Origin: a virus
Lineage: Duplodnaviria > Heunggongvirae > Uroviricota > Caudoviricetes
DNA: 4,616 bases
Direction: 5' to 3' (one strand)
IMG/VR virus record: IMGVR_UViG_2671180680_000003
Shown: in pieces, positions 1 to 4,616 of the stretch
Layout of the letters: every line of letters begins with the position of its first letter
Position numbering within the stretch: the stretch's first letter is position 1
Made by a program: the position numbers and the translations under genes
The notes under the pieces: model-generated
Told to the model about the DNA's origin: nothing
The model's database searches: none
The model's input: only the letters and a program-made list of their open reading frames with translations

Positions 1-10
1 CAATGTGCAT

Positions 11-45
11 AAAAAAATCCGGAAACAAGTGAGCGTTTCCGGATT
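11..45 (-). terminator. Putative Rho-independent terminator downstream of the portal gene (minus-strand specific)
   Basis: Plus 16-26 (aatccggaaac) and 35-45 (gtttccggatt) form a perfect 11-bp inverted repeat around an 8-nt loop (27-34). On the minus-strand transcript the stem is followed by a U-run (complement of the A-run at 11-17). On the plus strand the stem is followed by cttac, so it would terminate only minus-strand transcripts. It lies about 30 nt past the portal stop (78-80). Confidence 0.5.
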
Positions 46-77
46 CTTACACAGCCACTGGATCGGTCAACTGATCC

Positions 78-1325
78 TTAACTGATCGGCATTACACCAC
101 CGGGACGCGGATTCATATCTTCCAGGTCGCGGCAGTCATTGGAAGAGTAAATTCCCCAGTTGATCCCGGTGGCGTAGGCTTCAAAACGGGACTTCATATC
201 CCCGCGCAGTAACGCCCCGGCGTTAAATTTGGCGTAATAAACGCCCTGCTTACTTTTTCGTACCAGTCCGGTGTTGATCCGCTGTTCGATGCGGGTCAGA
301 TACGGCACCAGTGAATAGTTGATAAATCCCAGCCCCAGCTCTTCGATATTGTTGAAGGTGGCGCGATCGGTGTTCTGCACCATGTGCAACGGCACCCGGA
401 ACAGACGACAGATTTCTTCCAGCTGAAACTTGCGGGTTTCCAGGAACTGACTGTCCTCGGCGTTCAGCGCCATCGACTTCCAGTCCAGCCCCATTTCCAG
501 AATCATCGGGCGGTGAGCATTGCCAAGCCCCGTGTGACACTCCTCAAAATCTTTCTTCAGACGCTCGTAAGCATCCGGCGTGAGCTTTTGTTCCGTACGC
601 AACACACCGGATGTCACCGCACCATTACTAAACAACCTGGCACCGTGCTCCTCGGTTGCCGCTGCCAGTGAAATGGCCTCACGCGCATACGCAATGGGAT
701 TCAGCCCGACAAGTCCATCCAGCGTCAGGGTGCGCACATGCCAGATTTCATTCTGGGTCAACACATCCACGGAACCATCCGGAAACGTCACCTGATAAAC
801 CGGCTGCCACTGGCTGTTCAGCTTCGGTTCCACACAGCCCGGATCTATCGGAAGAAGCTCCACCACTTCTCCCAGTGCCTTTACCTTGTAGGCGTAAAAA
901 TTCCCCCGTAGACACAGGCAGACAATAACCAGCTCCCAGAATTCCTGCGGTGTCATGTAGCCATTAGGTTTTGCCGAAACCAACTTATGCAGTCGTTCAT
1001 CCACCGCCCGTGTTTTCAGGGTACCGCTGATTTTGTAGAGACTGCAGGGCAGCATACCAACAGACTCTGCCAGCACCCTGACGCAAGAATAGACCGCCGT
1101 CAGGCGCATGGCCCGCTGGCTACTGATCCGCTTTCCGGTATAGGTGTCGTATGACAGCCCGATAGCATCAGCAGTTCTGCTGGCGTGGTCACCGGCACAT
1201 CGCTTTTTCGTTGAAATAATCCCGAAAAGAACACTATTTACCTCCGCCGACAGACTGCCGTGTACGGTCGAGATATCGCGCCACCAGCCACGACCAGAAC
1301 AGGCACAGCGCCCCGGCAACAACAA
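78..1325 (-). CDS. Phage portal protein, HK97-family-like; 5' boundary uncertain
   Basis: Longest ORF is 415 aa with TAA stop at 78-80. It carries the [22 protein letters not shown] motif that I recall as typical of the N-terminal region of HK97-family portals, and it sits directly downstream of the large terminase. The track start at 1325 is a TTG (followed by two more TTG codons) and the first 31 codons overlap the small membrane ORF in another frame. The first in-frame ATG is at 1109..1107 (M73), which would give 343 aa. I found no ATG/GTG/TTG between them. Confidence 0.85.
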
Positions 1326-1416
1326 AACCCGCCGGGGGATAAATCAGCCAGGCACCATACGCCAGCAAAAGCGCACCCAGCACGCCCACCAGAGGCGCGA
1401 GAATCAGCATGATCAT
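1234..1416 (-). CDS. Hypothetical small membrane protein (60 aa, two predicted transmembrane helices)
   Basis: ATG at 1416..1414 is preceded by a GAGG Shine-Dalgarno with 5-nt spacing (minus strand ...CTGAGGTAATTATG), 11 nt after the large-terminase stop. The translation [60 protein letters not shown] has two hydrophobic stretches separated by PPAG and a short charged tail. No family recognised; could also be a chance ORF in a hydrophobic-coding frame. Confidence 0.45.
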
Positions 1417-1427
1417 AATTACCTCAG

Positions 1428-3161
1428 TTAAAGCGAGCGGATCCCGTAGGACTCAATGTGGTCAGACAGCGTGTCTTCTTTCTCGTACAGCATGGCTCTG
1501 CCAACCGCCATAATCAGCGCAACTGCACCATCGATTTTGTTTTCCGCCTGCTCTTTGACGGGTTTCACCACATCATCGTTACCCGGCATGTTTTTGCCGA
1601 CCACGTTGCCGATACACCAGGTCATGATGGGATTGCCGTCATGATGAAAACGTCCCGATTCAATCGCTGCTTCCAGCTCTTTCATCGGATCGGACATATT
1701 GGTGAAGTTCTGGACGATAGTGACGGGATTCAGGTCTTCATCAGCAAGGTCATGTGACAACCCGGTCGCCCCGAAGGGGTCGATGGGTGACTCACTGACC
1801 GGGCTGATTTTGTTCGCCGCTTTGGCCTCCTCGAGGATGTAGCGATAATCCACCTCCGCACCATCGGTAACGGTCAGAACGCCCATTTCCACCCATTTCT
1901 GAAAGCGTTCGGCTGTCCGTCGATCTTCATTTTTCTCGACGCTGTACACCGTGTCATACGGTACCCAGAAACGCGGGGCCACACTGTAGTAATGCGTTTT
2001 ACCGTCAATCTCGCGGGTATAAAGTCGCGCCATGCTGTTCATATCCAGCTTACGCGCCAGGTCAAAGGCCAGAATGCACGGCTGCCCCTCGAACTGCTCA
2101 AGGGTCAGTGATTTATCCTCGCAGCTCTGCCAGCTCACCAAGTTGAAATACGCCGAACGCGCCGACACCCAGATATTGAGGTGTTTTGTTTTAAAGACGT
2201 TTGCCAGACGGGCGTTATTTTTCGCACGCTGCTGCTGACTTAACAAAAATTCGCGATAAACCGACACGCCAATATTTGGATTGGCTTTTTCCAGCACCTG
2301 CGGGCCGGTCCAGTCGTCACCTTCATCAACGGTATAGATGATCCCGAACAGTTCATCGTTAGGCACCGAGCCGTTGAGCATCTCGATGACTTCCCGCCGC
2401 TTGTCGTAGCACGGCCCCTCAATGTTGTACCCGGCGGTGGTGATGGCCCACATCAGTGGCTGACGTCGCGCCCCCATCCCGGTAAGCATTGTGGTATAAA
2501 GCGCATCGGTGGCATGCTCGTGATATTCATCAACCACGGCACAGTGGGGTGATGAACCATCACCTGGGTTGCCGATCAGCGGTTCAAACCGCGCGCCATC
2601 CTCCGGACGGTTCATGTTTGAGGCGTTAACCTCAATCCCGAACGCTTCCGTCAGCATGGGTGTGCGTTTACACATCAGTCGCGCCGGGCGAAAGACTTCC
2701 CACGCCTGTTTCTCTGTCGTGGCACCGGAATACACTTCCGCGCCAAACTCGTTATCACAGGCAAAACAATACAGGGCAACACCGGCAGAGATTGCTGATT
2801 TGCCGTTCTTACGGGGGATTTCGGTGTACACCTCCCGGAAGCGGCGCAACCGGGTGCCTTTATTGACCCAGCCAAACGCACAGCAGATCACAAATAGCTG
2901 CCACGGCTCCAGCGTGATGGGCATCCGTTTGAATGCCCACTCCCCCTTGGTGTGCGGCAACAGCTGAATAAATTTCGCGGCCCGTTCAGCCAGGTCCTTG
3001 TCGAAGCGGTAACGAAACGACTTACTTTTTTCCGCCATCAGGTCATCAAGATGGCGCTGGCAGGCCTGAATCACAAACTGGCAGGCAACAATCTTTCCGC
3101 GCACGACATCCCGGGCATACTGATTTGCAGCATTTACGTTGGGGTAAGATTTCCGGCTCAT
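1428..3161 (-). CDS. Phage terminase large subunit (ATPase plus nuclease)
   Basis: 577-aa ORF with ATG at 3161..3159 and TAA at 1430..1428. Has a P-loop-like segment ([14 protein letters not shown], residues about 114-127) and a Walker-B-like acidic patch ([10 protein letters not shown]). Size and position (after the small terminase, before the portal) match lambdoid/HK97-type large terminases. Its ATG overlaps the upstream stop as ATGA. Confidence 0.93.
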
Positions 3162-3554
3162 GATTCGATAATTTTCAGAAACGGGTTAGTGGCTTTCTTC
3201 TGCCCCGCCAGGCCAATCAGACGCTGGCGGCTGCTGGGGTCGAGTCCGAGCATTGCCCCCGTGCTGCTCATCTCGGACTCCTGTTCTTTTTTGGCGGTCA
3301 GCTCCGGATTTTTGACCCTGCCGCCCATTGCACCGGTGATGGTGTTGCCCTGTATGGCAATATTTTTCACGGCACGTCGCCAGAACTCATAGGCCACGCA
3401 CCACCGCTCAAGTACCGCCAGGTCAGTCACGCACAGCAGGCCCTGACCGCAGAGTTCTTTGGTTGTCAGTTGCCACATGATCGTGGCGAGAGGGAGATCT
3501 TCTTCAGCGAACCACTCTGGTGGCTCAACACCTTTGATGGGCGTAAAAACAGGT
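3158..3554 (-). CDS. Phage terminase small subunit, P27-family-like (C-terminal part; N-terminus hidden in the N-run)
   Basis: About 131 readable codons ending at TGA 3158-3160, which overlaps the large-terminase ATG. The C-terminal region ([39 protein letters not shown]) resembles the conserved tail of P27-type small terminases as I remember them. The part of track ORF 3158..4003 upstream of the gap is an artefact of translating N as X. Confidence 0.75.
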
Positions 3555-3881
3555 NNNNNNNNNNNNNNNNNNNNNNNNNNNNNNNNNNNNNNNNNNNNNN
3601 NNNNNNNNNNNNNNNNNNNNNNNNNNNNNNNNNNNNNNNNNNNNNNNNNNNNNNNNNNNNNNNNNNNNNNNNNNNNNNNNNNNNNNNNNNNNNNNNNNNN
3701 NNNNNNNNNNNNNNNNNNNNNNNNNNNNNNNNNNNNNNNNNNNNNNNNNNNNNNNNNNNNNNNNNNNNNNNNNNNNNNNNNNNNNNNNNNNNNNNNNNNN
3801 NNNNNNNNNNNNNNNNNNNNNNNNNNNNNNNNNNNNNNNNNNNNNNNNNNNNNNNNNNNNNNNNNNNNNNNNNNNNNNNNN
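3555..3881. other. Run of 327 N (assembly gap or masked sequence)
   Basis: Directly visible in the sequence. It breaks both the HNH ORF and the small-terminase ORF. All ORFs in the track that cross it are bridged by X and their across-gap continuity is not real evidence. Confidence 1.
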
Positions 3882-4239: not shown

Positions 4240-4616
4240 CTACTTAATGCACTGAGTGCGGATATACTCCTGTGCCCCTTCCAGTTGCATCTGCATCGTC
4301 ATCAGCCGCTCTCTGAGGGTGAAATAATCCCGTTCAGCGGTGTCTGCCTGTCGGGGGCTGGTTGCATTATCCACGCCGGAGGCGGTGGTGGCTTCACGCA
4401 CTGACTGACAGACTGCTTTGATGTGCAACCGACGACGACCAGCGGCAACATCAGCGCGCAGAGTTTCATTTTCAGCTTTCGCATCAGCTAACTCCTTCGT
4501 GTATTTAGCATCGAGTGCATTAACATCACGCTGTCTCTGCTGCATGTCAGTAATGGTTGCGTTCGCCAGCTTCAGTTCTCTTGCGTTTTTGTCGCGCTGC
4601 TCTTTGTAGGTAATGG
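4240..4616 (-). CDS. Rz: Spanin inner-membrane subunit Rz (i-spanin), 5'-truncated by the window edge
   Basis: The track ORF starts at an internal Met (4545) but the frame stays open to the window end. My hand translation of 4546..4614 gives ...[24 protein letters not shown], which continues without a break into [26 protein letters not shown]...[25 protein letters not shown]...[11 protein letters not shown]. This is near-identical to my recollection of lambda Rz. TAG stop at 4240-4242. The N-terminal TM segment would lie beyond position 4616. Confidence 0.92.
4302..4484 (-). CDS. Rz1: Spanin outer-membrane lipoprotein subunit Rz1 (o-spanin), embedded in Rz in another frame
   Basis: 60-aa [63 protein letters not shown] with a signal peptide plus lipobox (VVGC) and a proline-rich mature region, closely matching lambda Rz1 from memory. 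It has its own strong Shine-Dalgarno (minus strand AAGGAGTTAGCTGATG) and lies wholly inside Rz in a different frame. Confidence 0.9.

Follow-up and report, generated by a model that had tools for sequence, protein, structure and literature searches.

A very probable frameshifted and IS4-truncated portal pseudogene in a degraded lambdoid prophage of Shigella sonnei

The portal proteins of the HK97 family, exemplified by HK97 gp3 (8CEZ/8FQL), are described by the profile models TIGR01537 and PF04860. Among the described systems closest to the locus considered here is phiP27, an Stx2e phage (portal NP_543090.1, our locus L38, with E. coli orthologues such as WP_240745495.1), in which the genes follow the order HNH endonuclease, small terminase (TerS), large terminase (TerL), a ymfR-like gene and portal. 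The phiP27 portal gene encodes an uninterrupted protein of 413 amino acids and is followed by the gene for a prohead protease. The prophage e14 of E. coli K-12 has the pair ymfR-beeE, and it is from e14 that RefSeq takes the name ymfR for the upstream gene. The e14 portal homologue, beeE, is presumably a pseudogene as well, through lesions that we take to be independent of those described below. Pseudogene formation and prophage decay driven by insertion sequences (IS) are known in Shigella.

The locus analysed here has the phiP27 gene order and shares with phiP27 a GGAGG motif, a 6-nt spacer and a TAGTG stop/start overlap at the beginning of the portal gene. It differs in that a deletion follows codon 21 and an IS4 element follows codon 380. 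Likewise, it matches the HK97-family portal models, but its coding sequence is broken. The portal reading frame is very probably a frameshifted, IS4-truncated pseudogene lying in a degraded lambdoid prophage of S. sonnei that resembles phiP27, ST64B and e14. As a case of Shigella decay it is typical, with IS4 at the end of the gene and a further IS3-family element inside or beside that IS4.

The window, by which we mean the whole stretch of 4,616 nucleotides that was analysed, carries all of its genes on the minus strand according to its ORF listing. In gene order they are as follows.

First in gene order, minus strand: Rz/Rz1 spanin genes, 3' part
After Rz/Rz1 and preceding a gap of 327 N, minus strand: HNH endonuclease gene
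Between the 327-N gap and TerL, minus strand: small terminase (TerS) gene
1428..3161, minus strand: large terminase (TerL) gene
1234..1416, minus strand: gene for a ymfR-like membrane protein of 60 amino acids, with its TAG stop at 1236..1234
78..1325, minus strand: portal ORF, last in gene order
1..94, minus strand: left end of IS4, with the terminal repeat TAATGCCGATCAGTTAAGG at 94..76

Positions 1..3554 of the window are found, base for base, in the chromosome of S. sonnei Ss046 (CP000038.1, an accession whose identity is confirmed in PMC5447701, where the genome is credited to Yang et al. 2005). Against complete E. coli genomes, the phage part reaches about 95% identity at best among the matches listed; matches of at least 99% in such genomes are probably due to the IS4 part of the window. 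The run of N occupies positions 3555..3881, where Ss046 has 254 real bases that comprise the 3' end of the HNH gene, a 121-nt HNH-TerS intergenic region and the 5' end of TerS. Since 327 N stand for 254 bases, the length of the gap must be an estimate or a mask, and the ORFs listed across it are meaningless.

An earlier note on this DNA had asked where the portal gene begins. The features that bear on this are given below, from the 5' end of the frame.

1317..1325, minus strand: TTG TTG TTG, start of a spurious 415-aa ORF, inside the ymfR coding region but in another frame
1241..1245, minus strand: Shine-Dalgarno motif GGAGG, 6 nt upstream of a GTG, with the same spacing in 80/80 relatives
1172..1234, minus strand: true portal 5' end, comprising the GTG start at 1234..1232 and codons 2-21
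1202, minus strand: C of Ser codon 11 (AGC), which is AGT in nearly all relatives of the GTG subgroup
1171..1173, minus strand: frameshift site, with one G (1172) in place of the GG of relatives (CTGGCT to CTGCT)
1107..1109, minus strand: ATG, internal Met43 of the ancestral portal, chosen as the start by many automatic annotations (343 aa)
1102..1100, minus strand: premature TGA, ending GTG-initiated translation after 44 codons
95..1171, minus strand: portal body (codons 22-380 of the ancestral gene), shifted into the -1 frame with respect to the GTG

The sites from which that note had argued are indeed present: the TTG codons at 1325..1317 open the longest ORF (78..1325, 415 aa, minus strand), the first in-frame ATG lies at 1109..1107 and leads to a product of 343 aa, and GGAGG stands at 1245..1241, followed in the portal frame by the codons AGT GTT CTT. 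It was also right that the TTG codons have no obvious Shine-Dalgarno sequence; none precedes them, and none precedes the ATG at 1109 either. Its further point, that only GTT and CTT codons are available near 1232, is true of the portal frame but overlooks the GTG at 1234..1232, which is one base out of that frame and opens an ORF of 44 amino acids (1100..1234). Neither this GTG nor the truncation of the 3' end by IS4 had been mentioned.

Several comparisons bear on the GTG. It overlaps the TAG stop of the ymfR-like gene by one base (TAGTG), and the portal genes of phiP27, ST64B and E. coli A36 and C311 are annotated as starting at this same position. Among 80 viral-contig relatives, collected with the restored portal protein (one G added) as the query, the codon found there is GTG in 57 and ATG in the other 23; the relatives with ATG represent a more diverged subgroup in which the overlap with the ymfR stop reads TAATG. 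Within codons 2-21, the variable columns number 0, 2 and 8 at codon positions 1, 2 and 3 of the GTG frame in the GTG subgroup, and 1, 0 and 6 in the ATG subgroup, a third-position bias that reads as the signature of a translated frame. The 20-residue peptide encoded by these codons is conserved in the GTG-start subgroup, and the portal products annotated in relatives have 413 amino acids. Such comparisons of sequence firmly identify the GTG at 1234..1232, served by GGAGG at 1245..1241, as the ancestral portal start. The 60-aa ymfR-like gene is itself kept between TerL and the portal gene across this phage group; in relatives it is annotated as 'protein YmfR' or 'membrane protein', and its product falls into no Pfam or NCBIfam family.

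From the GTG, 21 codons can be read before the frame is lost. The earlier note had proposed that close prophages be compared for a single-base difference, and this comparison finds one G absent from the window: the alignment has CTG-CTGAT in the window and CTGGC(G/A)GA(T/G) in the relatives, and the G-to-T difference beside the deletion is silent when read in the ancestral frame, where the codon still specifies Ala. The extra base is present in 76 of the 80 viral-contig relatives, and four IMG/VR contigs carry both lesions, the deletion as well as the IS4 junction. When one G is restored, the frame encodes 380 amino acids, which align gaplessly to the phiP27 portal at 97.4% identity; dN/dS of the restored gene against its relatives is 0.04-0.10. 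The gapless match and the low dN/dS together argue for a normal portal gene that was under selection until recently. What would be expected of a frameshift pseudogene is found here, namely an indel that truncates the frame, its reproduction in independent assemblies, and no conserved recoding signal.

The other end of the gene is lost to IS4. Homology to phages begins at window positions 95-97, and at 94..78 the element supplies the last five codons of the portal ORF (VMPIS) together with its TAA stop (80..78), so that the portal ends after codon 380 and lacks the last 33 codons of its 413-aa relatives. Thousands of E. coli records contain IS4-family elements that match the IS4 end in the window, and the matching sequence is annotated there as IS4. 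In the S. sonnei chromosomes a complete IS4 of 1426 bp follows, with a matching right repeat (13068..14493 in locus L008); its terminal repeats are imperfect relative to each other, and its DDE transposase matches PF13006 and PF01609. The left flank (...CCCGGTGGTG) and the right flank (CAGCCCTTGAGC...) have no repeat between them, and hence no target-site duplication is present. Nor was homology to the portal 3' end, prohead protease or capsid found within 10 kb downstream in the S. sonnei chromosomes, where chromosomal genes lie beyond IS4. A simple insertion of IS4, with the rest of the portal gene beyond it, was rejected on both counts; the lack of a duplication and of any continuation of the portal gene points instead to an adjacent deletion or an IS-mediated rearrangement. 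In several S. sonnei genomes the IS4 is in turn interrupted, about 1125 nt into the element in loci L006 and L012, by an IS3-family element that begins TGGATTTGCCCCTATATTTCC and that we take to be IS2. The context to the right of the element also varies among strains, being bamE-recN-nadK-grpE in some and raiA-pheL-pheA-tyrA-aroF in others, which implies an IS-mediated inversion or rearrangement at the locus.

Were the missing G merely an artefact of sequencing or assembly, the 5' end of the gene would be intact in the organism. The sequence is indeed draft-like, with its 327 N in place of 254 real bases, the window ends inside a repeated element, IS4, and the indel falls in a GG dinucleotide. 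However, a run of two bases is no error-prone homopolymer, and the deletion recurs in the four IMG/VR contigs and in every one of 20 independently sequenced S. sonnei loci, where a 51-mer across it is identical, CP000038.1 of Ss046 included. These loci were fetched via exact TerL and YmfR proteins, and nearly all are multi-megabase chromosomes. The 343-aa ORF that results from the deletion is, moreover, found on at least 1000 contigs. An error is on this evidence highly improbable.

The frame also exists in an undeleted form within the species. The unshifted, IS4-tailed protein of 385 amino acids that would be predicted was looked up and has an exact public match (P0016, e.g. CSN80531.1); some two dozen short contigs carry it, under the name 'portal protein [Shigella sonnei]'. 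The DNA of this minority allele reads CTGGCTGAT at the site (L105-L112) and aligns to the window over stretches of up to 3.5 kb with one or two mismatches and one gap. It thus represents the same remnant with the same IS4 junction, but it keeps GG, and its GTG frame runs uninterrupted into IS4. Examples of the GG allele are the runs ERR025742, ERR025754, ERR025756, ERR025765 and SRR28511568 and the assemblies GCA_900487965.1 and GCA_001252575.1. In terms of frequency, 31 index blocks contain the unshifted allele, and about 4300 contain the TerL protein encoded nearby. The deletion is therefore a genuine polymorphism within S. sonnei and not an error. Of the 20 S. sonnei loci, 19 extend to the IS4 junction and have it in identical form; the other is a short contig that stops before it. 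As the junction is common to every copy examined that reaches it, the most parsimonious order would place the truncation by IS4 before the loss of the G, an order that draws on the distribution of the alleles and not on a phylogeny. A reversion, in which the G was re-inserted in the minority lineage, would be expected to produce the same pattern and is less parsimonious.

The portal identity of the remnant is clear from its profile matches. PF04860 is matched with 359 bits (cut-off 39.1; E 2.5e-107) over model positions 2-321 of 321, and TIGR01537 (portal_HK97) with 263.7 bits (cut-off 112.05) over positions 3-343 of 343, both above the curated cut-offs that define the family. The alignment to the HK97 portal structure 8CEZ spans residues 27 to 380 (E 4.6e-51). 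On the restored protein these matches start at residue 47 for PF04860, residue 39 for TIGR01537 and residue 27 for 8CEZ. A member of the family would also have a single uninterrupted frame from the conserved start to the stop, which this gene does not, and would sit in a head module; here TerL and ymfR lie upstream, but no protease or capsid gene lies downstream. The gene is accordingly best regarded as a pseudogene derived from an HK97-family member rather than as a functional member.

The 415-aa ORF remains to be accounted for. Upstream of the deletion, the -1 frame traverses the true portal 5' end, enters ymfR and reaches the three TTG codons. In phiP27 the equivalent off-frame is closed by a TGA (AAA AGT GAC, read as AAG TGA); the ATG subgroup has a TAA at that place, within the sequence AAATAAC. 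In the window, the synonymous AGT-to-AGC change that gives the C at 1202 converts the off-frame TGA to CGA, and the spurious frame is thereby open back to 1325. The ORF is thus the chance outcome of two small changes, and its first 51 residues, which have no counterpart in any relative, are not portal sequence. The earlier note had suspected that the first 30 or so residues were out of frame, and residues 1-51 are in fact the off-frame 3' end of ymfR joined to the true portal 5' end. It had also allowed that homologues might align along all 415 residues, in which case the long ORF would simply be correct; the alignment begins only at about ORF residue 52. The TTG codons at 1325, 1322 and 1319 were each rejected as a non-canonical start, lacking a Shine-Dalgarno sequence and lying inside ymfR in a frame that is closed in relatives. 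The ATG at 1109 was likewise rejected, being the internal Met43, downstream of residues that are conserved and matched by the profiles. The ambiguity over the start codon arises because a frameshifted pseudogene has been read as one ORF. Of the options the earlier note had left side by side, a damaged gene is the one that stands, in the form of the 1-nt deletion, and a non-canonical start and a sequencing or assembly error both fall.

It could still be argued that a shortened portal-like protein is made from a TTG or from the ATG at 1109 and retains some function, such as interference with the portals of incoming phages. All 415 codons are open, the Pfam portal domain is complete (ORF residues 77-403), and such products are listed in public annotations. 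Yet neither the TTG codons nor the ATG has a Shine-Dalgarno sequence, the extension back to the TTG codons falls within ymfR in another frame, one in which relatives have a stop, and a start at 1109 discards part of the sequence aligned to the HK97 portal (from 27) and to TIGR01537 (from 39). The 33 C-terminal residues and all of the partner head genes are gone, and the openness of the ORF hangs on a single synonymous change that arose by chance. We therefore hold such a protein to be very unlikely, while some translation at a low level, be it by spontaneous slippage or from a TTG or the internal ATG, is possible.

A related proposal is that the portal remnant, or the 44-aa peptide, has been retained as a dominant-negative fragment directed against head assembly by superinfecting phages of the phiP27/Sf type. 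Its support is limited to the openness of the frame and the intactness of the genes nearby; if it were true, the intact HNH, TerS, TerL and ymfR genes would owe their retention to belonging to an exapted module. Little further decay is to be expected in any case, because S. sonnei is a young clone, and we give this proposal only a very slim chance.

Under the preferred reading, that of a frameshifted and truncated pseudogene, the portal of the ancestral phage was translated from the GTG at 1234..1232 by way of the GGAGG 6 nt upstream, and the geometry of the TAGTG overlap suggests that its translation was probably coupled to that of the ymfR-like gene. In the first lesion, IS4 together with a loss of adjacent DNA replaced everything after codon 380, including the downstream head and tail genes. 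In the second and probably later lesion, in what is now the dominant S. sonnei lineage, one G of the GG after codon 21 was lost. Ribosomes starting at the GTG would now stop at the TGA at 1102..1100 after 44 codons, and the rest of the portal lies in the -1 frame, which is open by chance into ymfR and forms the 415-aa ORF with no biological start. Since the coding sequence is not intact, a full-length portal subunit cannot be made, and we infer from the sequence that no functional portal would be produced. Programmed -1 ribosomal frameshifting, by which the GTG-initiated 5' end would be linked to the portal body, was checked and rejected, and is the least probable reading of all. In its favour, slippage by -1 at any point between 1234 and 1102 would give back a product of portal length, and an A5 run is present at 1208..1204. 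Against it, the GTG frame has no X XXY YYZ slippery heptamer from 1234 to 1100, a single frame encodes the protein in 76 of the 80 relatives and in the minority S. sonnei allele, so that no recoding is conserved, and the gene is truncated at its 3' end and without downstream morphogenesis genes.

The main value of the analysis lies in annotation hygiene. The Ss046 record has a 414-aa 'putative portal protein' that starts at the second TTG (AAZ89394.1; UniRef Q3YYL8), at least 1000 S. sonnei contigs have a 343-aa 'portal protein' that starts at the ATG, and in some S. sonnei assemblies no product is called at the locus. Neither the 414-aa nor the 343-aa product has a real start codon. The correct label would be a frameshifted, 3'-truncated pseudogene whose ancestral GTG start overlaps the ymfR stop. 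The G/GG polymorphism beside a fixed IS4 junction might also provide a small, clean marker to separate the minority from the majority of S. sonnei. In other respects this is routine IS-driven prophage decay of a kind already known in Shigella, and nothing about it is mechanistically new.

Some smaller observations concern the neighbouring genes. The TerS stop and the TerL start overlap as ATGA at window positions 3158..3161 on the minus strand, a style of tight coupling like that of the ymfR/portal junction. TerL is called as a protein of 498 amino acids, or split into 90 and 498 amino acids, against 577 amino acids, in a few S. sonnei assemblies (L020, L022 and L023), and these calls come either from continued decay of the remnant in certain strains or from indel errors in long reads. 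At the other end of the window, the 3' part of the Rz-like ORF holds, in a different frame, a lipoprotein-like ORF of 60 amino acids; this embedded spanin pair lies at 4240..4545 and 4302..4484 on the minus strand, and its counterparts in related loci match PF03245 (Phage_lysis) and PF06085 (Rz1).
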